Below, piece by piece: positions 5,541-38,378 of a stretch of DNA of 47,345 nucleotides; within the stretch, counting starts at the first letter, position 1; the number at the start of each line of letters is the position of its first letter. Made by a program: the position numbers and the translations under genes. The notes under the pieces were generated by a model, which was not told the DNA's origin, did no database searches, and saw nothing but the letters and a program-made list of their open reading frames with translations. Source of the stretch: an uncultured Gammaproteobacteria bacterium (GTDB lineage Bacteria; Patescibacteriota; Microgenomatia; CAYQLK01); NCBI GenBank assembly GCA_964426075.1, contig CAYROP010000002.1, forward strand, positions 1 to 47,345, given 5' to 3'.

Positions 5541-6608
5541 ATGTCAGAACCCGTAAGGGTAGGCATCAATGGCTTCGGACGCATCGGCAGACTCGCTCTA
5601 CGTATTTTCGAAGCAAAGTACAAAGGCGTTCTCGAGGTCGTTGCCATTAACGACCTTTGGCCACCTGAAGTCCTCGCACACTACTTCGAGTTCGACAGCA
5701 TCTACCGCGCCTATCCCGGCACGGTCAGTGCAAATATCGCAACCGAAGGCGTCCGCGGCACGATCTGTGTCGATGGACGCAACATCGTCGTGTTCAACGA
5801 ACGCAACCCATCGAACATTCCCTGGTCAGAACTAGGTGTGGAAATCGTCATCGAAGCCTCAGGCTTTTTCACTGACGCCAACCTGGCTCGTGGCCACATC
5901 GACGGTGGTGGCGCCAAGAAGGTGCTAATCTCAGCACCAGCCAAGAACGAAGACATCACCGTTGTCCTTGGTGTCAACGATCTTCTGCTCCGCCCAGAAC
6001 ACGCAGTCATCAGCAACGCCAGCTGCACCACCAACGGCCTCAGCCCTCTGGCTCTGGTCTTGGAACAAAGCTTCGGAATCGAAGCAGGGATCCTCACCAC
6101 GATCCACTCCAAGACCGGCACACAAAGCCTGACCGACAGCCCGAAACCGGACTTTGGGGACGGCAGGGACGGTTCGACCAACATGGTACCGGGTGATACC
6201 GGCGCAGCCAAAGCCGTCGAACTCGTCATTCCCAGCCTGAAAGGCAAGTTCAAGGGTATTGCTGTCAGGGTTCCGACCGCAACGGTTTCCCTGATCGACT
6301 TCTCGGTCCTCCTTAACCGGGAAACGACCAACGAAGAAATCCGTGAAGTCATGTTGGCCGCAGCCAATGGACCACTTCAGGGTATCCTCGACGTCACCGA
6401 CAAGAGGCTGGCATCATCGGACTTCATCGGCAACAGCTTCTCCTCGATCTTCAGCTCAGTCAACACTCAAGTCATCGGCCGGCTGGTGAAAATCCTTAGC
6501 TGGTACGACAACGAGTGGGGATATGCCACCAGACTCTGCGATCTTGCCGCTCTGGTAGCTTCCATGCTGGTTGCTTCCATGCTGGAATCAGCCAAGCCGA
6601 ACAACTAG
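5541..6608 (+). CDS. gap: Glyceraldehyde-3-phosphate dehydrogenase, divergent type I; GC-rich compositional outlier
   Basis: NGFGRIGR NAD-binding motif, SNASCTTN active-site Cys, TTIHS His, TGAAKAV, and WYDNEWGY near the C-terminus. SD agaagg lies upstream. Confidence 0.9.
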   Translation: MSEPVRVGINGFGRIGRLALRIFEAKYKGVLEVVAINDLWPPEVLAHYFEFDSIYRAYPGTVSANIATEGVRGTICVDGRNIVVFNERNPSNIPWSELGVEIVIEASGFFTDANLARGHIDGGGAKKVLISAPAKNEDITVVLGVNDLLLRPEHAVISNASCTTNGLSPLALVLEQSFGIEAGILTTIHSKTGTQSLTDSPKPDFGDGRDGSTNMVPGDTGAAKAVELVIPSLKGKFKGIAVRVPTATVSLIDFSVLLNRETTNEEIREVMLAAANGPLQGILDVTDKRLASSDFIGNSFSSIFSSVNTQVIGRLVKILSWYDNEWGYATRLCDLAALVASMLVASMLESAKPNN

Positions 6609-7794: not shown

Positions 7795-8583
7795 ATGCCT
7801 CATGGTTATGCCGCCAGAAACATGCCCGACTTCGATCGAAGCAGGGTAGTATTTTCAACCCACGGCATCAAACACCTGCATCATCTCGGCGACTTCTACA
7901 ACGCCCTTTTCACCCGAGATCCGAACGAAACATTCGCCATCAAGGTCGACGCTGAAATTTCGGCCTTCGTCGGGGTCGGCGCAGTCATGACCAATGCGAA
8001 TCAGATTCGCTACGGCAACACTCCGCCAATTATGCTCGACATCAAGCTCGGCGATATGCCCTCCGTGGTCGCAAATGCCGCCAAGGCACTCAGTGAAGTC
8101 CACGAGCCAGTAGCCTTCACCGTCAATCCAAGCTCCGGCATGGCAAGTCTTCACGCCGCAGTCGAAAACCGCGGCGTCTGCCAGATCATCGTCTCGACGG
8201 TCAACACCTCACTCAGTGACGACGACTGCCGACTGATCTACAACCGTGACCGAACAAGCCAAGTCATGACTTTTGCAGAAATGGCTGCCGAAGCGGGCGC
8301 ACAAGGCGTAATTGTCGGCGGATGGGAAATCGAGCTACTAAAAAAACTCGGCATCCCTTCGTCGCTCAAAATCTACGGCGCAGGAATCCGGCCCACCTGG
8401 TTCACCAACCGTGGTGACAACTACCGTACCGTTACGCCAACAGAAGCCATCCTTCAAGGCGCAGACAAGATCATCGTCGGCGGACCGGTTCTCAACCAGA
8501 ACGACCCAGAAAGCAAGCGTAGCGCAGCTCTAAAAATCCTGCGCGAAGTCAACAAAGCAATCGGGGTTCCGGCCCTAACCTAA
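7795..8583 (+). CDS. Orotidine-5'-phosphate decarboxylase superfamily protein (PyrF-like, atypical); GC-rich outlier
   Basis: LDIKLGDM matches the DxKxxD motif. AGIRP...RGDNYRTVTPTEAILQGADKIIVGGPV parallels the PyrF C-terminal PGIRP..DQxR..TP..A..G.D..V.GRP block, but with Gly in place of the Arg. Confidence 0.7.
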   Translation: MPHGYAARNMPDFDRSRVVFSTHGIKHLHHLGDFYNALFTRDPNETFAIKVDAEISAFVGVGAVMTNANQIRYGNTPPIMLDIKLGDMPSVVANAAKALSEVHEPVAFTVNPSSGMASLHAAVENRGVCQIIVSTVNTSLSDDDCRLIYNRDRTSQVMTFAEMAAEAGAQGVIVGGWEIELLKKLGIPSSLKIYGAGIRPTWFTNRGDNYRTVTPTEAILQGADKIIVGGPVLNQNDPESKRSAALKILREVNKAIGVPALT

Positions 8584-13374: not shown

Positions 13375-13408
13375 ATTGCAAAGTTCCTTCATAAGAATAG
13401 GAGTACGG

Positions 13409-14020
13409 ATGTCCCTCATCGACCGATGGACAGACCTTTGGGAAGCGATGAACTTTTCAAGTCCTCGGACTAACTTCATCGCACTCGTCAGCCGTTACGA
13501 AGATGGCAAACGCGCCTATCACAACATGAAACACATCCAGCACTGTCTCGATGAGCTAGACAAGGTCAGAGAACTGCTCGCCGACCCGCACGCAGCAGAA
13601 CTCGCGCTCTGGATGCATGATGTGATTTACGACCCCAAGCGAGCAGACAACGAAGAACGAAGCGCCGAGTTTGCTCTAAGGTGTCTGATCAGTTCCGGCG
13701 CAGCGCCTCAACTAGTGCTCAAAGTCGTCGCGCACATCCTGGCAACCAAACACCACCGTGTGATCACCAACGATCCCGACCAACCGTTCGTCCTCGACTG
13801 CGACATGGCCATCCTTGGCCAGCCCAATGAGGCCTTTGACCTCTACGACACCCAAATCGCTCAAGAATACGGTTTCGTTCCACAGGAGCGCTATCGCCAA
13901 GGTCGCAGCTCGGTTCTGCAAAACTTCGAGCGCCCGATCTTCAAAACTCCTTTCTTCCGCGACCTCTACGAAGAGGCGGCAGAACTAAACATCAAAAGAG
14001 CCATCCAAAGGCTCAGCTAA
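13409..14020 (+). CDS. HD-domain metal-dependent phosphohydrolase (COG4339-like); GC-rich outlier
   Basis: RAYHNMKH ... LALWMHDVIYDP gives an H...HD pattern. I chose the ATG at 13409 (SD aggag upstream) because the TTG at 13376 lies at or upstream of the predicted transcription start. Confidence 0.7.
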   Translation: MSLIDRWTDLWEAMNFSSPRTNFIALVSRYEDGKRAYHNMKHIQHCLDELDKVRELLADPHAAELALWMHDVIYDPKRADNEERSAEFALRCLISSGAAPQLVLKVVAHILATKHHRVITNDPDQPFVLDCDMAILGQPNEAFDLYDTQIAQEYGFVPQERYRQGRSSVLQNFERPIFKTPFFRDLYEEAAELNIKRAIQRLS

Positions 14021-14304: not shown

Positions 14305-14742
14305 ATGAATATCGCATCCTTCGCGACCAGGCCAATCGGCGTGACCGGCACCCAGTACGACTGGACGGAATCAACCGAAACCCAGTACTTGGTAAAGGAA
14401 CGCCTCAGGATCGCAGGCGACGTCGCCAGCAACAGGATCGGACTCAGGGTCACTCTCACAACCGGCGAGCAGTTCGCTGGGCAAGAAGCCGTCAACCAGA
14501 TCCCGTATCTGGCCATCTGCTACAAACTCAGCAAAAACCCCGCCAAGCTCGTCGTCCGCGCCGTGATGCTTGATCCCAAGGTCGGACCAAAAGCCAGCTG
14601 CATCGCTGCCATCAACAAATGGCGCGCAATCGAGCAGCGCGATACTGAAAACGGTGAAATGGTCGAAGCCTACTACTTCTACCACGACACCTCGGTCGAC
14701 TGGATCAACTACGAACTGCCCCAGGCAGTACCCGCAGCGTAA
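14305..14742 (+). CDS. Hypothetical protein (145 aa), GC-rich outlier, no recognisable family
   Basis: ATG preceded by aagaggag. C-ending codon bias like the other GC-rich genes. Has its own promoter and terminator. Confidence 0.65.
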   Translation: MNIASFATRPIGVTGTQYDWTESTETQYLVKERLRIAGDVASNRIGLRVTLTTGEQFAGQEAVNQIPYLAICYKLSKNPAKLVVRAVMLDPKVGPKASCIAAINKWRAIEQRDTENGEMVEAYYFYHDTSVDWINYELPQAVPAA

Positions 14743-21701: not shown

Positions 21702-22343
21702 GTGTTTACCCTTCCTCTGGTGACTATCTCAGATAGCGACTGGCCAAACGACAACTCCGAACTTGGAGTCAACAACTACCGCCCGCACCCAGGCGACCTC
21801 AGCAGGTTTTTGGCTTTCCAAAGCCAAACCTACCTTGGAGCTGGGTATCACGAGCGGTACAACAATCCGATGCTCGCTGCACCAAGTAGCGAAGCAGCAG
21901 GTGGCACCATCTACTTCCACAACGACATTCGTCGTGAAGACCTTGCCGGAGTACTCCGCGCACTCGATATCAAAGACCCCCCTGGGGCTCCGAAAAAGTT
22001 CATCGTCTATTCGGCCACCAGCCACAAGCCTGGCGAAGACCAATACCTCAAACAACTCAGGTTCGTCAGCCACTTCGCAATGATTTATGGCTTCCACGCC
22101 GTCAAAGAACGCGAAGAAGCCGGACTTCCAACTCAAGAGCTCACGCTGGAGGAAATCATCTGGCTTTTCATCCAGAATCAACGCGAAGAGTGGGGAACCA
22201 GCTTTACCTCGCCCAAACTCGATCGCCTCTTCGGTGGTGACGGCTGGAATGCCAGAGAAGAACTCTCATTCGGCCTTCAGGTCGAATCCGACTACAACCG
22301 CGTCTATCGTCTCTGGAGTAGGGCATGGCTCGTCCACAAGTAA
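21702..22343 (+). CDS. Hypothetical protein (213 aa), GC-rich outlier, no recognisable family
   Basis: GTG start preceded by ctggag. Codon bias matches the other GC-rich genes. Overlaps the downstream HD gene by 19 nt. Confidence 0.6.
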   Translation: MFTLPLVTISDSDWPNDNSELGVNNYRPHPGDLSRFLAFQSQTYLGAGYHERYNNPMLAAPSSEAAGGTIYFHNDIRREDLAGVLRALDIKDPPGAPKKFIVYSATSHKPGEDQYLKQLRFVSHFAMIYGFHAVKEREEAGLPTQELTLEEIIWLFIQNQREEWGTSFTSPKLDRLFGGDGWNAREELSFGLQVESDYNRVYRLWSRAWLVHK

Positions 22344-22894
22344 AAGGTGTCGACACAACCAACTACCCAAGCTTTGATGAGCTGTTTAGTCTCATCGAAG
22401 AACCTCTTCAGGCTAGCCTAAGGGAACAACACTCCGTATGGCTACCACTGTTCAATGCTTCTCAAGGAGCAAGACACAACCACCACAGCTGGCATCCATT
22501 CGGCTACCTCGACCACGTTCAAGAATGCATGGTTTTGGCCGTCTCGCTCTACCAGCACCTTAGCCTCACCAGACCCCTGGATTTCACTCTCAGTTCAGCG
22601 CTAGCTGTTCTGTACCTCCACGACATCGAAAAACCTTTCCGCTACGTCAGAGCCGAACCCAACCTCGAAACCAAAGATCAGAGAAAAAAGTTTCGGCGCG
22701 AGTTCGTCCACAAGTGGGGAATTCCACTAAGCCCAGCCGAAATCCGCGCACTCGACCTCGTTGAAGGAGAAAACGACGAGTACTCGCCCAACGAAAGAAT
22801 CATGAAGCCCCTTGTCGCATTCTGCCACGCTTGCGACACCATGTCCGCACGCATTTGGTTCGACTTTGGCATTAGCCGAGTTAAAACCAAATAA
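22325..22894 (+). CDS. HD-domain phosphohydrolase-like protein (189 aa), GC-rich outlier
   Basis: LDHVQEC ... LAVLYLHDIEKPF ... CHACDTMSAR gives an H...HD...D pattern. SD ggag lies upstream of the ATG. Confidence 0.6.
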   Translation: MARPQVKGVDTTNYPSFDELFSLIEEPLQASLREQHSVWLPLFNASQGARHNHHSWHPFGYLDHVQECMVLAVSLYQHLSLTRPLDFTLSSALAVLYLHDIEKPFRYVRAEPNLETKDQRKKFRREFVHKWGIPLSPAEIRALDLVEGENDEYSPNERIMKPLVAFCHACDTMSARIWFDFGISRVKTK

Positions 22895-27298: not shown

Positions 27299-29278
27299 AT
27301 GAATATTTTAGTACCACATTCTTGGCTTTTGGACTTTCTTAAAACTAGTGTGTCACCAGACAAACTCGCCCAAACTGTTTCACTCTGTGGACCGTCGTTT
27401 GAAAGATCGCGCAAATTAGGTAAAGAAACTATTTATGATATTGAAATAACCACCAACCGACCAGATACCGCCTCAATTATTGGAATTGCAAGAGAAGCCG
27501 CCACAATCTTGCCAGAATTTGGAATCAAAGCTAAATTTGTCGATCCATATCTAAACAAAACCTCATTTTCTGTACAAAAATCGCAAACTCTACCAATCAA
27601 AATAAAAACCGCCAAAGATACTGTATTAAGATTCTCTGCAATTGTTATCGACAATGTCGAGGTCAAAAAATCTCCACTTAAAATAGCTAAAAGACTTGAA
27701 AGTGTAGGCATAAGACCAATTAACAATCTTGTTGATCTTACAAACTACATCATGATCGAAACAGGTCAACCGATGCACGCTTTTGATTATGATTCTATTC
27801 TTGGCCAAACAGCTAGTGTCGAACTCAGTAAAAATGAGGAGATAATGACTACTCTTGACGGCAAAGAACACACACTACCTCAAGGGTCGATAATTATTCG
27901 CGACAGTAAACGAATAATTGACTTAGCCGGCATCATGGGCGGAGAGAATTCTCAAATTACCAACCAAACAACACGAGTTTTATTAACATCCGCCGTTTAT
28001 AATCCTAAAAGAATTAGAGCTACATCACTCAAACTTGCTCACCGCACCCAGGCTGCTACTTTGTTTGAAAAGGGAATCGATCCTGAACAGTCAATTAAAG
28101 TTCTCGATCGATCCATAAAACTTTTATCAAAACTTTCACCCAATAGCAAAATAGCCAGTGATTTGATTGATATATATCCAATAACCAACAAAACTAAAAC
28201 AGTTAGCCTTAATCATGAACTTTTAGAAAAATACCTAGGTATCGAAATCAGCCCAAAAACTGTAGTGAGAATTTTAAACGGCTTACAAATTAACACAAGC
28301 TTCCAAACCACACCCAAAAAATACCTAAGTACTATCCCATCTCACAGGTCAGCCGATATGGAAATAGAGCAGGACCTAATAGAAGAAGTCGCTCGTATCT
28401 ACGGTTATCACAAACTACCTTCAACTCTGCCTCCGCAATTAGAAAAAATTGCCCCAAAACAAACACAATTTGTACTTGAAGAAATTATCAAAAAAATACT
28501 CATAAAACATAATTTTAACGAAGTTTATAATAGTCCTATTATTTCCAAAGACCTTCTCGAACAGAGTCTATTCCCAGAAAACAAAATAGTAAAAATAACC
28601 AATCCAATTAGTGAAAATATGTTTATGCGACCAAGCCTAATACCATCAATGGCACAAACTGCTGAGCTTAACCTTAAATACACACCTAAATTCAACCTAT
28701 TTGAACTAGCAAATATTTATATTCCACAAAAACTGTCACCACTTCCGCAAGAAAAAATGCAATTTTGTTTGTATACAAATACTTTTTCTGTTTCAGAATT
28801 TAAAGGTATTATCGAACAAATTCTAAGTAGGTTAGGTATTAAATTCGATATTTCATTCGATGCGCAAAATACTGAATTTGATCCCGATCAATCCATAAAA
28901 TACTTATCCGGTAAATTAGAACTTATAACTCTTGGTGTAGTTAAAAAATTCCACAACCTTGGTTTTTTTGCCATAATCGACACCTCAAACATCATAAAAA
29001 CAGCAAAACCCAAAGTATCATTTAAACCCATTCCAACCTACCCGCCAACATTCGAAGATATAACGATTGAAACAGCAAGTGATACAAAAATCGGACAAAT
29101 CGTTTCAAAAATACTAAAGATTAGTCCAAAAATCATAAACATTAGTTATGTCGAAGGTTTTGCCAAAAAAACCAAAATCGCTCACACGTTTAAAATCGAA
29201 TTAAGAGATAGTAAAAAAACCATCACCAAAGAAGAAGCTACAGAAATTAAGGCAAAAATTATCAATAAATTCAAATAA
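27299..29278 (+). CDS. pheT: Phenylalanyl-tRNA synthetase beta subunit (short, 659 aa)
   Basis: Immediately follows pheS. Has B3/4 and B5-like segments (TNRPDTASIIGIAREA, MHAFDYD) and a C-terminal ferredoxin-fold anticodon-binding region. Confidence 0.85.
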   Translation: MNILVPHSWLLDFLKTSVSPDKLAQTVSLCGPSFERSRKLGKETIYDIEITTNRPDTASIIGIAREAATILPEFGIKAKFVDPYLNKTSFSVQKSQTLPIKIKTAKDTVLRFSAIVIDNVEVKKSPLKIAKRLESVGIRPINNLVDLTNYIMIETGQPMHAFDYDSILGQTASVELSKNEEIMTTLDGKEHTLPQGSIIIRDSKRIIDLAGIMGGENSQITNQTTRVLLTSAVYNPKRIRATSLKLAHRTQAATLFEKGIDPEQSIKVLDRSIKLLSKLSPNSKIASDLIDIYPITNKTKTVSLNHELLEKYLGIEISPKTVVRILNGLQINTSFQTTPKKYLSTIPSHRSADMEIEQDLIEEVARIYGYHKLPSTLPPQLEKIAPKQTQFVLEEIIKKILIKHNFNEVYNSPIISKDLLEQSLFPENKIVKITNPISENMFMRPSLIPSMAQTAELNLKYTPKFNLFELANIYIPQKLSPLPQEKMQFCLYTNTFSVSEFKGIIEQILSRLGIKFDISFDAQNTEFDPDQSIKYLSGKLELITLGVVKKFHNLGFFAIIDTSNIIKTAKPKVSFKPIPTYPPTFEDITIETASDTKIGQIVSKILKISPKIINISYVEGFAKKTKIAHTFKIELRDSKKTITKEEATEIKAKIINKFK

Positions 29279-29320
29279 CTCTAGGATTTTTTTATCTCAA
29301 CAACCTTCGACTAAATACTC

Positions 29321-29349
29321 TTGACAAACTAATAACTATAGGGTATAAT
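29321..29349 (+). promoter_or_regulatory. Consensus sigma70 promoter of the ORF-free GC-rich unit
   Basis: TTGACA (29321-29326), exactly 17-nt spacer, TATAAT (29344-29349). Confidence 0.6.
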
Positions 29350-29355
29350 CATCAC

Positions 29356-30098
29356 AATAAGCAGTGTAACATCTGCTTGTCCGCTCTTTCATTTTATTGG
29401 AGGTAGAGACATGAGGCCGCCAAATCCTTCTGGTCTGTAAAAAGCCAATAGAAGGTGGCCGAGGACTCCATTTTCGTTTCGTGGCCCACTCAGGGAAATC
29501 CGCAAGGCGAGATACCTACCCGGGGAGAATAAACCCTCTGCGCGTAGTACCGCCCTGCCAAGCCAGAATTCGCCTATGGTTACTCCGCAAGAAAACACGC
29601 GGTAAATACCTAAGGCAGATAAAGGAGCACGACTACATATGGATGTCTGATTCTGTCGGCTGTTTAGCTTTGTCCTAAGATAATGCCAAGAATAGGCTAG
29701 TCGAAGGAAAAGTGGATCAGCCCCTCAAAAGAGCCCGCGAACGAACGGGCGCAGGTGGCCCCCAAAATCGCCACGAGTTCGATCTCGTGGAACGAATAGG
29801 GCGCCAACCTCGAGATCTCGGCTTCCACCTTCCGTGTAGCCCAGAATGTTGTTTTCTCTCTTACTTTAAGGGAAACGACACAAAGGCAATCCCATACACA
29901 CGGTAAAGGTCAAAGAAAGGAGATTGGCCATGCAGCGCCGGTCCTGCCAGGACCAGTAAGTCGCGACACGGTATAACGCCCCATCGCTGCCCAGCGTTAC
30001 AGGGACTAAAGAAAAGTCGTAACTTCTGGCGAAGCGACAAAAAATAATTTCGCCACCACATCCTCAAGGCCGGAGCCCACAAAGCTCCGGCCTTTTTT
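29356..30098 (+). ncRNA. Candidate large structured non-coding RNA (about 740 nt), class unknown
   Basis: Bounded by a consensus promoter and a strong terminator. GC-rich. No ORF longer than 73 aa in any frame. Dense local and nested helices. No RNase P or tmRNA signature recognised by eye. Confidence 0.45.
30068..30098 (+). terminator. Intrinsic terminator of the ORF-free unit
   Basis: Stem ggccggagc / gctccggcc (9 bp), followed by T6. Confidence 0.75.
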
Positions 30099-30144: not shown

Positions 30145-32778
30145 CTAATCAACCCAAGGCTGCCCAACTGAAACATTGATCTCTTTACTTCCCACACCAC
30201 CATTTTTAAGGTTACAAGCGACTCTAATCTTGTGTTTACCTTTTTGTCCATCGGTAAACAAATATTCAAACTCTGGACTCAACCCTTGATTAGTTTTGAC
30301 CTTATTATCGTCAATATATAATTCACATTTTTCAACATTACTATCATCTTTGACTGTAACCTTCGCCTTAATCGTAACCTTTAGATCAACCTGATCTTTA
30401 TCTCTCGGCCTATCCATATCCAAGATTACATCCGTATCTGATACAGACGATTTACCATCAGAGTTCTCTGTAGGTGGCCTATACCTTTCATCGGTTTGAG
30501 TCGCTGCCCAAGCGTTAATTCCTTCTTGCCAGCGATTCTTACCATCAGTCGAAATCGGATCCTCTTCATTGAATACAAAATATTCTTTCTCGTCATACTC
30601 ACCCTTAGCAACTTCCAAGTCGTTTGCCAGTTTACCTGTAGACTTACTTACTTTTACCTTTTTAAACTTCAGACAGTCTTCTGTAGGTTCTGTTCCTTTA
30701 ACAAAATATTCAGCTCTTGTTGCAAAATCGCGACAGACCTTACCACCACCAATTGCATCAATTACCTCAGATGTAACATTCGACGGAACTTTAAAATCTT
30801 CACTCTTTTTATCTTTTAAGGCATAACTCATAATCTTATTCCAAATTGGTGATGCTCCAGTTAAACCAGAAGAAATCTTAGGATTCATGGGACTATTGTC
30901 GTTGTTACCAACCCAAACACCCACAACAACCGATGGAGTGTAACCGACAGTCCAGTTATCACGCTTATCATCTGTCGTACCTGTTTTGACTGAAACAGTC
31001 TTTCCCGGCACAACCAAGCTTGATCCAGTACCAAAAGCCGACGAGCGAGCAGCATTATCCAACAAGAAATGAGAAATAATAAATGAGGTCTCTTCGCTCA
31101 AAACCTTTGGACCTTCTTTCGGTTTATTTTCCTTAAGTGTTTTACCTTTACGATCCTCGATCTTTAATATCGAAATAGGCTCTTGTCTACGTCCACCGTT
31201 TGCAAACACGCCAAAAGCCGTTGTCATATCAATTAATTTAACCTCACCTCCACCCAAAGTAACCGACAAACCAAATCGTTTCATATTGTCGTTCGTTGGT
31301 TCAAGAGTCGAAAGTCCCATATCATATGCAGTCTGTAACATGCTTTTTACTCCAACCATCGCAAGCAACTTAACCGCAGGAATATTGTATGAATTAGCCA
31401 GAGCATATCTTAGCTGAGTCGGACCATGAAACTTACTATCATAGTTAACCGGCTTGTAAGGTGGCTGACCAGCTCCACCGGGGAATTCTGTCGGTGTATC
31501 CATTATTACTGTACTCGAAGGCAAACCTTCTTCAATTGCGGTTGCATATGTCACAGGTTTAATCGACGATCCAGGTTGTCTTAGTGCTGTTGCCACATTG
31601 TATTTACCATCATATTCCTCATCAAAATAATCTTTTGAGCCAACCATTGCCAAAATCTCACCATTTTTAGGGTCAGTAACCATAGCTGCACCGTTGGTTG
31701 CATTAAGATCCGCAAGCTTGGTCACTTCGTCATAAACAATCTTCTGTGCCTCTTCCTGCAAATCAAGATCCAAACTTGTCGTAACCTTAAGTCCTCCAGA
31801 CTGCACGACTGATTCACCATACTCATTTTCTAACTGCTCACGAATATAAAAAACAAAGTGTGGAGCCTTGAAAGTTTCATTTGATTTCGCAAAAACCACA
31901 CTTGGTAGTTCAGACACAATTTGCTCTTCCTGCTCTTTGGTAATGTAATTATCTTCACGCATTCTTCTAGCAACATCTTTTGATCTATCTATATAAGCTG
32001 TTGGGTTCTGACCAAAAGGGGATAGATAGGTAGGTCTTTGTGGAAGTCCAGCTAAAATAACTGCTTCAGTCAAAGTCAGATCTTTTGAGGTTTTGCCAAA
32101 ATATAACTGCGAAGCTGCCTCAATCCCCGAAGCTGTACCACCATAAGGAATTTCATTTAAATAAATCTGTAATATTTCGTCTTTAGAGTATTTTCCCTCT
32201 ATCTGAACAGCCAAAATAAACTCCTTAAACTTACGGGTTAAAGTCTGTTCATCGGTCAATAAGGCCTTTTTAACCAACTGCTGAGTAATCGTCGATCCAC
32301 CCTGCGTATCTCCAAAAAACACTGTTTTAATAAATCCGCGAATAAAACCAACCGGACTAAAACCACCGTGTTTATAAAAATTCTGGTCCTCAATCGCAAT
32401 TGACGCTTGAGGAACATAAGGCGGCAAACTCTTTAATTCGACAAGGGATCTATTTTCATTACCGTAAACATCATAAAGAAGCTTGCCATTTCGATCCAAA
32501 ATCTTCGTCGACAACTCCTGATCTCTTTCAGTAAGTTTTGTAGGCGATGGTAAACTGCGAGACACTATGGCAAAAAGAATTCCAATAAAAACAATCATTA
32601 CTACAAGACCCGCAATTAAAGCCGTTGTTGCAAACGCCACAAGTTTTGCTTTTTTGCTTTTACGCGAAAAAAGTAATCTTTTGGTTGTGCCGGAAAAATA
32701 AACTGGTCTCCTACGACCAGATGACTGTGGAACCTTTAACATTCCTACTATTCTAACAAGCCTACTTATAGTAAACAA
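30145..32778 (-). CDS. Bifunctional class A penicillin-binding protein (glycosyltransferase GT51 + transpeptidase) with a C-terminal extension
   Basis: N-terminal TM helix; GT51 motifs (EDQNFYKHGG, GGSTITQQLVK, RKFKE); transpeptidase SSIKP, SYN and KTGT motifs; about 220 extra C-terminal residues. Confidence 0.85.
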   Translation of the reverse strand: MFTISRLVRIVGMLKVPQSSGRRRPVYFSGTTKRLLFSRKSKKAKLVAFATTALIAGLVVMIVFIGILFAIVSRSLPSPTKLTERDQELSTKILDRNGKLLYDVYGNENRSLVELKSLPPYVPQASIAIEDQNFYKHGGFSPVGFIRGFIKTVFFGDTQGGSTITQQLVKKALLTDEQTLTRKFKEFILAVQIEGKYSKDEILQIYLNEIPYGGTASGIEAASQLYFGKTSKDLTLTEAVILAGLPQRPTYLSPFGQNPTAYIDRSKDVARRMREDNYITKEQEEQIVSELPSVVFAKSNETFKAPHFVFYIREQLENEYGESVVQSGGLKVTTSLDLDLQEEAQKIVYDEVTKLADLNATNGAAMVTDPKNGEILAMVGSKDYFDEEYDGKYNVATALRQPGSSIKPVTYATAIEEGLPSSTVIMDTPTEFPGGAGQPPYKPVNYDSKFHGPTQLRYALANSYNIPAVKLLAMVGVKSMLQTAYDMGLSTLEPTNDNMKRFGLSVTLGGGEVKLIDMTTAFGVFANGGRRQEPISILKIEDRKGKTLKENKPKEGPKVLSEETSFIISHFLLDNAARSSAFGTGSSLVVPGKTVSVKTGTTDDKRDNWTVGYTPSVVVGVWVGNNDNSPMNPKISSGLTGASPIWNKIMSYALKDKKSEDFKVPSNVTSEVIDAIGGGKVCRDFATRAEYFVKGTEPTEDCLKFKKVKVSKSTGKLANDLEVAKGEYDEKEYFVFNEEDPISTDGKNRWQEGINAWAATQTDERYRPPTENSDGKSSVSDTDVILDMDRPRDKDQVDLKVTIKAKVTVKDDSNVEKCELYIDDNKVKTNQGLSPEFEYLFTDGQKGKHKIRVACNLKNGGVGSKEINVSVGQPWVD

Positions 32779-36222: not shown

Positions 36223-36573
36223 TTGTCCAAGACCAAAAAAAGTAAAAAGGGTGGAAAAAAGGTTAAGGAGCAAAGGGTAGAGACTCCCACTATCGCAGAA
36301 GAGCCCACTGCCCTCCGCCCAACCCCACCTCGAGGTCCAGGCCTTGATCTCTCAAAGGTCACCAATTCCACACCTGATGTTCGGGATCTAGACAGAGAAC
36401 TGCGATTCTGTCTGGAACAGCCGAACCCCAGAGACGCCGAATGCGTTCGACTGCTTGTCGGGCACGTAGTAAGCAACAATCTGCAAGTTCTCGAACAAAA
36501 AAGTCATCTAGGCGAAGCCAACAAAGCCCTTCTTGGCGATGCCATTGCAACCCTCCGCAGACTCATCGCTTGA
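36223..36573 (+). CDS. Hypothetical protein (116 aa), Lys-rich N-terminus then GC-rich body, no recognisable family
   Basis: TTG start 9 nt after aaagga. There is no in-frame ATG near the 5' end. Has its own promoter and terminator. Confidence 0.5.
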   Translation: MSKTKKSKKGGKKVKEQRVETPTIAEEPTALRPTPPRGPGLDLSKVTNSTPDVRDLDRELRFCLEQPNPRDAECVRLLVGHVVSNNLQVLEQKSHLGEANKALLGDAIATLRRLIA

Positions 36574-36622: not shown

Positions 36623-36651
36623 TTGACTTAAAAATTACCGCTGTATATAAT
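36623..36651 (+). promoter_or_regulatory. Sigma70-type promoter of rpmF
   Basis: TTGACT (36623-36628), 17-nt spacer, TATAAT (36646-36651). Confidence 0.55.
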
Positions 36652-38350: not shown

Positions 38351-38378
38351 TTGACACAGCTTCATTAGCCAGTATAAT
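38351..38378 (+). promoter_or_regulatory. Sigma70-type promoter of rpsP operon
   Basis: TTGACA (38351-38356), 16-nt spacer, TATAAT (38373-38378). Confidence 0.55.

Follow-up and report, generated by a model that had tools for sequence, protein, structure and literature searches.

The subject of this study is a 743-nt unit in a 47,345-nt stretch of DNA (contig CAYROP010000002.1 of assembly GCA_964426075.1, hereafter the window), located between pheT and a convergent gene for the class A penicillin-binding protein PBP1A. The unit is very probably a genuine structured non-coding RNA (ncRNA) gene that represents a family new to Rfam. It has a promoter and a terminator of its own, recurs at the same locus in seven further lineages, evolves without coding constraint and contains helices with compensatory changes. 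As the best explanation overall we propose, tentatively and with somewhat less than even confidence, an abundant and stable structured ncRNA gene of one Curtissbacteria-like lineage that carries ribosome-binding-site (RBS) mimics. The Candidate Phyla Radiation (CPR) makes up a huge uncultured share of bacterial diversity in which regulatory RNAs are almost uncharted, and the gene described here is well delimited, clade-specific and looks highly expressed. The lack of an Rfam match in combination with a conserved core, a pseudoknot and lineage-specific expansions therefore makes it a clean candidate for a new RNA family.

The transcription unit

The open reading frame (ORF) of pheT (27299-29278, + strand) ends at position 29278 and that of the PBP1A gene (30145-32778, - strand, 877 aa) at position 30145; Pfam agrees with the identity of both neighbours. 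The following features delimit the unit between them.

29321-29349, + strand: sigma-70-type promoter TTGACA-17-TATAAT, 12 of 12 consensus positions, predicted start near 29356
29356-30098, + strand: predicted primary transcript, a non-coding RNA of 743 nt (based on promoter and terminator bounds, ortholog units and non-coding evolution)
30066-30098, + strand: intrinsic terminator with an 11-bp stem, a 7-nt loop and a T6 run (stem and loop at 30066-30094)

This promoter is one of two perfect matches in the window. The GC content is 0.50-0.55 within the unit and 0.30-0.40 in its flanks, at a window mean of 39%. The longest ORFs in the unit encode 73 aa on the - strand and 65 and 64 aa on the + strand. 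The minimum free energy of the + strand fold is -257 kcal/mol (z = -4.9 versus shuffles), and the fold of the minus strand has a z of -3.4 versus shuffles.

An earlier sequence-only reading of this DNA had described a GC-rich unit of about 740 nt between the stop codons of pheT and PBP1A, bounded by the perfect promoter and by a GC hairpin with T6 and free of ORFs longer than 73 aa, and each of these statements was borne out, the terminator stem having 11 pairs. The same reading had called the neighbouring genes GC-rich, which does not apply to pheT and PBP1A; the GC-rich genes lie elsewhere in the window.

Orthologs and taxonomic distribution

The cluster of PheT proteins that is 87% identical to the one of the window includes a protein named Candidatus Curtissbacteria, and the next relatives, at about 40% identity, belong to other Microgenomates and WWE3, in line with the earlier assignment of the DNA to Patescibacteria. 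Seven further lineages with 57-87% identical PheT carry the unit between pheT and a convergent PBP1A gene (ortholog loci L081/L082, L083, L084/L085, L086, L087, L088, and L001), in the shared gene order thrS-infC-rpmI-rplT-pheS-pheT, unit, convergent PBP1A, tyrS. As expected of an independent ncRNA gene, a promoter of its own (TTGACA, a spacer of 17-18 nt, TAtAAT) and a GC-rich intrinsic terminator are present in all eight units. The sequence TATAGG just 5' of the -10 element is likewise kept in all eight promoters, and the terminator, kept in eight of eight orthologs, shows an A-U versus U-A swap between the long and the short type of the RNA (see below). The length of the unit varies as follows.

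Window: 743 nt
L081: 645 nt
L084: 574 nt
L083: 534 nt
L086: 479 nt
L088: 398 nt
L001: 357 nt
L087: 248 nt

More distant Microgenomates with the same gene order (PheT 41-43% identical) lack the RNA and have gaps of 2 nt, 95 nt and, in an AT-rich form, 398 nt at this position. A search with the C-terminal part of PBP1A added one short contig and nothing more, and the contig of the nearest PheT relative (P0121) stops 22 nt past pheT. Judged from these loci, the family is confined to one small Curtissbacteria-like Microgenomates clade of the CPR, and at the pheT/PBP1A locus the RNA looks like a lineage-specific gain.

Three observations concern individual ortholog and relative loci. The AT-rich 398-nt gap at the pheT/PBP1A position of L093 (7047-7444) has no similarity to the RNA and may be a decayed gene on the minus strand. 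In L001 the RNA promoter is separated from pheT by about 340 nt (7990-8332), which include a GC-rich stretch and a GGAG-N11-ATGGATGG that resembles module 2 described below; this segment could be left over from a second copy or from a 5' extension that was lost. The metagenome-assembled genome records of L001 (CAYGIG010000002.1) and L002 are titled 'uncultured Gammaproteobacteria', while pheT and the gene order are those of a relative of CPR/Microgenomates, and the titles are probably mislabelled.

Non-coding evolution

Substitutions were counted by position modulo 3 and indels by whether their length is a multiple of 3 for three pairs of orthologs.

Window and L081: substitutions 55/51/50; 3 of 15 indels a multiple of 3
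L083 and L084: substitutions 50/54/52; 0 of 9 indels a multiple of 3
L001 and L088: substitutions 39/37/38; 2 of 8 indels a multiple of 3

There is thus no 3-base periodicity, most indels shift the frame and the ORFs are unconserved, from which it follows that coding constraint is absent. The conserved nucleotide blocks stay in register past stop codons and frame changes. The comparison of orthologs shows that the unit evolves as RNA and that no conserved protein would be made from it; the earlier judgement that a protein product is unlikely is sustained by the missing codon periodicity and by orthologs that lack any coding signal.

Secondary structure and covariation

The structural features of the window copy are listed below; the terminator hairpin was given above.

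29359-29378, + strand: P1 hairpin AAGCAG/CTGCTT, 3 nt from the 5' end
29415-29460, + strand: E1/E2 helical domain of the 5' extension (GGCCG../..UGGCC and CCUUCU/AGAAGG)
29480-29560 (approximate), + strand: insertion of about 75 nt particular to the window copy; L081 lacks it when the two are aligned pairwise
29585-29602, + strand: hairpin CCGC..GCGG, which opens the part common to the short-type RNAs
29658-29722, + strand: long-range helix Hd, GGCUG (29658-29662) with CAGCC (29718-29722), enclosing a variable insert
29710-29831, + strand: tentative helix He, AAGUGGA (29710-29716) with UCCACCUU (29824-29831), one bulged C
29733-29750, + strand: hairpin Hf, GCCCG/CGGGC; GCCCUC/GAGGGC in L081, which is one compensatory pair
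29771-29817, + strand: window-specific hairpin CCACGAG-UUCGAU-CUCGUGG and CGAGATCTCG palindrome (inverted repeats I5 and I6)
29930-29971, + strand: most conserved block, consisting of AUGNAGCG, hairpin H1 (29939-29956) and UAAGNCGCGACACRG
29985-29996, + strand: hairpin H2, CGCU-GCCC-AGCG (weak, 71% of cells paired; absent from L087)
30016-30055, + strand: H-type pseudoknot with stems S1, GUCG (30016-30019) with CGAC (30035-30038), and S2, GGCGAA (30028-30033) with UUCGCC (30049-30054)

Counted by hand, 18 of 36 pairs in five helices (P1, H1, the pseudoknot stems S1 and S2, and the terminator) have compensatory changes. In the tool-based count, for which the 3' domain was realigned to a covariance model, 88% of the cells are paired versus 79% in shuffles, and 11 pairs of this domain change on both sides versus 7.0 +/- 1.5 in shuffles. 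The covariation score is 0.271, compared to 0.113 in shuffles (reached by 0 of 500) and to 0.03-0.08 when the partners were slid (maximum 0.082). Compensatory changes as expected of a conserved secondary structure are thus found among eight sequences of two subtypes. The G-U pairs in P1, helix Hd, E2 and the terminator are compatible with the + strand only.

A 5' hairpin is present in eight of eight orthologs, and five of the six P1 pairs have compensatory changes. Pairs 4 and 6 of E2 show such changes in L083 and L084, and the hairpin at 29585-29602 is, as we read the sequences, the counterpart of the 5' hairpin of the short type. Helix Hd, likewise found in all eight orthologs, encloses 10-65 nt, has compensatory changes in three of five pairs and is a plain hairpin in L087. 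Helix He is a weak candidate: its strands are kept in L081 according to our reading of the alignment, with a G-C to G-U change only and no compensatory change. The sequence flanking H1 is invariant in eight of eight orthologs, and H1 itself has compensatory changes in four pairs. A possible closing helix, H0 (UG..GCG with CGC..CA), is invariant and hence gives no covariation readout, which leaves it as a candidate helix.

The pseudoknot is of the classical H type with an A-rich loop 3, and both of its stems are kept across species. By hand, compensatory changes were counted in four of five S1 pairs and three of seven S2 pairs, and the tool-based count found changes on both sides in three of five tested S2 pairs; S1 was counted by hand only because the MAFFT and covariance-model alignments put it out of register.

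Among the helices that had been named from the sequence alone, aagcag/ctgctt, ccttct/agaagg, gcccg/cgggc, ggtcc/ggacc, and ggcgaa/ttcgcc exist and covary, whereas the others are not conserved. The T-loop-like hairpin at 29771-29790 and the aggtgg arm (29753-58) fall into an insertion of about 27 nt that is absent from L081, the closest ortholog, the cgagatctcg palindrome lies in an adjoining segment that is replaced in L081, and the segment 29771-29817 as a whole is missing or replaced there. Of the proposed long-range pair aggtgg/ccacct, the ccacct arm is kept in L081; its tentative partner, as the alignment is read here, is instead the AAGUGGA at 29710-29716.

Conserved core and lineage-specific expansions

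The RNA of L087 (248 nt) defines a core of about 250 nt. From the 5' end, the core consists of a 5'-terminal hairpin, a U/A-rich linker, GGAGG-spacer-AUGGAUG and helix Hd, followed by GGAG, a spacer of 6-8 nt, AUGNAGCG, H1 and the invariant UAAGNCGCGACACRG, and finally by the optional H2, the pseudoknot and the terminator. Other orthologs have additional hairpins at three places: within Hd, within H1 and in the stretch from Hd to the second GGAG. The long type, which comprises four RNAs (window, L081, L083, and L084), is alone in having a 5' extension of about 230 nt that contains a hairpin of its own, a GGAGG-spacer-AUG/GUG module and the covarying helical domain. Compared to L081, the window copy has extra insertions of about 75 and 27 nt. 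As far as the alignments indicate, the 743 nt of the window copy, which exceeds all others in length, are therefore lineage-specific and made up of insertions and a 5' extension on the core of about 250 nt. For structure-function studies, the threefold size range amounts to a set of deletions made by nature.

Modules 2 and 3 are directly preceded by short direct repeats separated by about 300 nt (29595-29627 versus 29896-29922), namely the pairs ACACGCGGTAAA / ACACACGGTAAA and CAGATAAAGGAG / CAAAGAAAGGAG, which give a hint of an old internal duplication. An origin of the 5' extension or of modules 2 and 3 by internal duplication found no support, since local alignment scores were no better than those of shuffles and an nhmmer profile of module 3 matched only the upstream GGAG..AUG piece.

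Comparison with known RNA families and wider searches

At the gathering thresholds of Rfam 15, the window yielded tRNAs only and the seven ortholog loci yielded no match. With the threshold relaxed to E <= 10, a 911-nt region of the window gave only weak matches, the best of which was to the terminator hairpin, and none to RNase P RNA, transfer-messenger RNA (tmRNA), signal recognition particle (SRP) RNA, 6S RNA, GOLLD, ROOL, OLE, raiA or introns. The compact ortholog of L001 (357-nt unit, 461-nt region) gave terminator-like noise only at the same threshold. In these two regions the covariance models of SRP RNA and 6S RNA and the models RNaseP_bact_a and RNaseP_bact_b had no match even at E <= 10. 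The P4 strands by which RNase P RNA is recognised (GGAAAGUCC.. and ACAGAA..GGCUUA) were not found either, and a weak AAGUCCGG resemblance to RNase P RNA in L088 is not present in the window copy and, by reading, pairs only with the terminator. SRP RNA is recognised by a domain IV with a GNAR loop and 6S RNA by paired ends with a central bubble; here the RNA begins with a hairpin of its own and ends in the terminator, which speaks against 6S RNA and SRP RNA. ARAGORN found no tmRNA in the window or in the seven ortholog loci, and inspection of the sequences revealed neither a tRNA-like domain nor pairing of the 5' end with the 3' end.

Distant blastn searches of phage and plasmid collections returned nothing similar to the ncRNA. 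A covariance model of its 3' domain (R1) found all eight units at 111-161 bits and nothing else in 24 sources, with no paralog in the window and no copy in 16 other loci of CPR and related bacteria. A metagenome scan with the exact pattern GTGTCGCGNYTTAN{8,38}CCRRCGCTNCAT returned four loci and no new RNA: two were known (L090 is the contig of L087, and the RNA of L092 is identical to that of L081), and the remaining two were rejected as chance matches in GC-rich coding DNA. A looser pattern returned 15 loci from viral contigs, none of which is a real match to R1; the best of them (L100, 22.7 bits) was rejected because the whole H0/H1 core is absent.

The lack of a known-family match and the absence from more distant Microgenomates therefore point to a new, narrowly distributed RNA family. 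The sequence-only reading had set aside RNase P RNA and tmRNA, correctly as judged by Rfam and ARAGORN, and had leaned toward the giant ornate RNAs such as GOLLD, ROOL and OLE, a placement that has to be given up with these models unmatched, orthologs of 248-743 nt and a core of about 250 nt. Its broader view of a structured, independently transcribed RNA of no known class agrees with the missing Rfam family, the promoter and terminator of its own and the covariation, and appears sound; seven orthologous lineages with compensatory changes and no coding signal point in the same direction.

RBS-like modules

The window copy contains three RBS-like modules with a GGAG, a spacer and a start codon, where the sequence-only reading had seen no Shine-Dalgarno (SD) motif; they precede ORFs of 9, 3 and 9 codons.

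29399-29440, + strand: module 1 (long type only), GGAGG (29399-29403), 7-nt spacer, AUG (29411), 9-codon ORF MRPPNPSGL*
29624-29645, + strand: module 2, GGAG (29624-29627), 11-nt spacer, AUGGAUG (29639-29645), ORF MDV*
29919-29959, + strand: module 3, GGAG (29919-29922), 7-nt spacer, AUG (29930), 9-codon ORF MQRRSCQDQ*

The spacer of module 1, measured from the GGAG core, is 6-9 nt long and unconserved in sequence, the start codon is GUG in L081, and the ORF has 7-30 codons in L083 and L084. Module 2 has its GGAG and AUGG(A/C)UG in all eight orthologs; counted from the GGAG core, long-type RNAs have a spacer of 11 nt and short-type RNAs one of 15-16 nt. Module 3 (GGAG, an unconserved spacer of 6-8 nt, AUG) is also found in eight of eight, and its AUG is followed by no codon at all (AUG-UAG) in L086, L087 and L088, by 8 codons in the window, L083 and L084, by 14 in L081 and by 22 in L001. 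A GGAG-type motif at 5-9 nt upstream of an AUG or GUG is thus present in modules 1 and 3, in every ortholog that has these modules, and not in module 2. A free spacer sequence, a kept spacing of GGAG and AUG and the change from AUG to GUG are together what characterises a ribosome-binding site. GGAG is predicted to pair with different partners in different orthologs, and therefore no conserved helix explains its conservation.

The modules stand out in a mostly SD-free genome. GGAG or GAGG occurs at -16 to -5 in 8 of 49 window ORFs of at least 100 aa (background 3.5%), a count that rises to 10 of 49 if any in-frame start within the first 40 codons is allowed, and rpsP and rpmF lie behind near-consensus promoters yet start without SD. 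The anti-SD is missing mainly in some Parcubacteria, and most other CPR bacteria keep it (PMC9297842). Binding of 30S subunits to STAB-SD sequences blocks RNase J1 in the absence of translation and stabilises the RNA (PMC4113751; PMC5737220), and functional start-stop sites bind ribosomes in Escherichia coli and yield no product (bioRxiv 10.1101/520783).

We propose that the conserved GGAG-spacer-AUG/GUG modules would act as mimics of ribosome-binding sites, at which 30S subunits or ribosomes would dock via the anti-SD and the initiator tRNA without making a meaningful product (ORFs of 1-30 codons; AUG-UAG in three orthologs). Docking might shield the RNA from 5'-to-3' decay in a STAB-SD-like manner, or it might itself be the function, in which case the RNA would titrate or sense initiation capacity where most genes are without SD. 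Ribosome engagement at the putative mimic sites is a possibility that we rate as rather doubtful. A dedicated decoy RNA, stable and highly expressed, that captures 30S or 70S ribosomes and initiator tRNA at start-stop mimics is an unlikely extension of it. Such an RNA would set or sense initiation capacity in an SD-poor CPR lineage and would be an analogue, for the ribosome, of what 6S RNA is for RNA polymerase; to our knowledge no class of ribosome-engaging decoy RNAs is established. The mimics, including AUG-stop, in any case provide the concrete hypothesis of an ncRNA that acts via the ribosome, and if they are mere stabilisers the RNA is still a new orphan ncRNA.

Several findings weigh against this proposal. 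A canonical SD would not allow a spacer as long as that of module 2 (11-16 nt), predictions of accessibility for GGAG and AUG are inconsistent (unpaired probability 0.01-0.88), and the U and G of the module 3 AUG are possibly kept as part of the invariant H0 instead. A function for the conserved 3' domain (H1, UAAGNCGCGACACRG, and the pseudoknot) follows neither from this model nor from any of the alternatives below. Independent covariation events are moreover few, because the eight sequences come from one narrow clade and many of the changes split just two subtypes.

By eye, AGCGCCGG was also considered as an anti-terminator against the 5' strand of the terminator. This candidate was dropped, as the match rests on a CCGG palindrome and the segment would in any case be occluded by a ribosome at the AUG.

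Alternative explanations

The RNA might instead bind proteins or serve as a scaffold, as part of a lineage-specific ribonucleoprotein (RNP) or as a protein sponge, with GGAG and AUG as protein or tertiary-contact motifs and no ribosome involved. RNP RNAs are indeed resembled by the invariant AUGNAGCG..UAAGNCGCGACACRG around the covarying H1, by the pseudoknot and by the layout of a core with expansions, and the inconsistent predicted accessibility of the GGAG sites and the ability of the module 3 AUG to pair in H0 also fit. The conserved neighbourhood, however, offers no candidate partner gene (only thrS-infC-rpmI-rplT-pheST, PBP1A, and tyrS), a start site would explain why the spacing is kept while the spacer sequence varies and why AUG can be replaced by GUG, and GGA is not enriched (14 observed versus 12.4 expected), so that the RNA is not a CsrB-type sponge. 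We consider a role in protein binding, the main rival of ribosome engagement and rated equally with it, possible and, on balance, rather unlikely. That one of the tiny ORFs (MRPPNPSGL, MDV/MDAPT.., or MQRRSCQDQ) is the product of a micropeptide or dual-function mRNA, with the structure serving stability or regulation, would agree with SD-like motifs properly spaced before AUG or GUG and with the third-position differences (GCG/GCA/GCU and ACC/ACU) that, by reading, are synonymous in the short-type MDAPT ORF. It is very unlikely given that the codons after the module 3 AUG vary between 0, 8, 14 and 22, that module 2 gives MDV* versus MDAPTWGPI* versus a 24-aa ORF, and that nucleotide conservation runs past stops and frame shifts without codon periodicity.

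An effect in cis on the neighbours, as a 3' untranslated region of the pheST operon or as an antisense RNA or insulator for PBP1A via read-through or collision, is suggested by the constant position between pheT and the convergent PBP1A gene, and inspection of the sequence showed neither a pheT terminator before the promoter nor a good minus-strand terminator of PBP1A. It is very unlikely indeed, since the unit starts from a consensus promoter that belongs to it and ends, towards PBP1A, in a conserved terminator of great strength; relatives in which these genes are arranged alike manage without the RNA, with gaps of 2 and 95 nt, and an insulator needs no conserved internal structure of at least 250 nt. 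A highly diverged housekeeping RNA (RNase P, tmRNA, SRP, or 6S) missed by the standard models would account for the overlapping size range and the strong promoter, and the search for these RNAs covered the window and the ortholog loci. No family matched the window copy or the 357-nt ortholog at E < 10, however, ARAGORN found no tmRNA in the eight loci, in which no tRNA-like domain or paired ends were seen, and sister Microgenomates do not have the RNA at this position; moreover, a housekeeping RNA would not shrink to 248 nt and yet keep RBS-like modules, which makes this explanation extremely improbable. We give the least credence, close to none, to a decayed protein gene or mobile-element remnant: the GC-rich island does lie in an AT-rich genome with GC-rich, possibly transferred protein genes, but promoter, terminator and helices are kept with compensatory changes in eight lineages, and there is no phage or plasmid similarity and no real match in viral contigs. 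The structured ncRNA gene with putative RBS mimics is the account that we tentatively retain.

Other features of the window

The second perfect promoter of the window (TTGACA-16-TATAAT, 38351-38378) lies upstream of rpsP, and a promoter with 11 of 12 consensus positions (36623-36651) lies upstream of rpmF. Protein genes with a GC content of 55-62% are found in this genome of 39% GC at 5541-6608, 7795-8583, 13376-14020, 14305-14742, 21702-22894 and 36223-36573. Among them are genes for GAPDH and for an OMP-decarboxylase-like protein, as well as four to five ORFs without a Pfam match, two of which resemble HD-domain proteins by eye. These genes are sited among tRNA genes and may have been horizontally acquired. 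The GC-rich islands of the window were also considered as further RNAs, and were rejected as such because they are these protein genes (GAPDH, the OMP-decarboxylase-like gene, and the HD-domain-looking ORFs). A perfect 10-nt inverted repeat (CCTTCGACTA / TAGTCGAAGG, 29304-29313 with 29698-29707) connects the region upstream of the ncRNA promoter with the interior of the RNA, and is probably due to chance because it is not conserved in L081.

Comparison with known systems

With GOLLD, ROOL, OLE and raiA the ncRNA shares the character of a GC-rich, helix-dense stand-alone RNA that forms a GC-rich intergenic island in an AT-rich genome and contains pseudoknots and many hairpins. It differs in that it matches none of their models, has a core of about 250 nt with a threefold length range, and occurs at a fixed chromosomal locus in one narrow CPR clade instead of being widespread or associated with prophages.

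Repeated GGA-containing motifs are reminiscent of CsrB and RsmZ, and AUGGAUGU resembles the consensus for CsrA from in vitro selection (SELEX), ACARGGAUGU. In contrast to these RNAs, the sites number only two to three and lie outside repeated hairpin loops, and GGC replaces GGA in L088. A CsrB-like GGA sponge was rejected, as GGA is near expectation in the window copy and four others (14 versus 12.4; 5 versus 4.4); it is above expectation in L083 (17 versus 8.3), L086 (14 versus 8.6) and L084 (13 versus 9.7).

Like tmRNA, the ncRNA would be a stable RNA in which an mRNA-like segment is accompanied by H-type pseudoknots. Unlike tmRNA, it has no tRNA-like domain or CCA end and no ARAGORN or Rfam match; SD motifs, absent from tmRNA, stand before its ORFs, none of which encodes a degradation tag.

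The start-stop ORFs of E. coli (yecJ, hslR) have their likeness in the SD-like motif and AUG followed by a stop codon in L086, L087 and L088. In E. coli such sites are located within protein genes or upstream of them and tune these genes, whereas those described here lie in an ncRNA, and the other orthologs have ORFs of 9-23 codons instead.

The STAB-SD of Bacillus thuringiensis cry3A and B. subtilis hbs is likewise an SD-like sequence near a 5' hairpin in a segment that is not productively translated. Those sequences are part of the leaders of protein-coding mRNAs, whereas the ncRNA has no downstream gene and has two to three modules, each with a start codon and a putative interaction with 16S rRNA. 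By analogy with these leaders, STAB-SD-like docking would nevertheless be a plausible route to a long-lived RNA.

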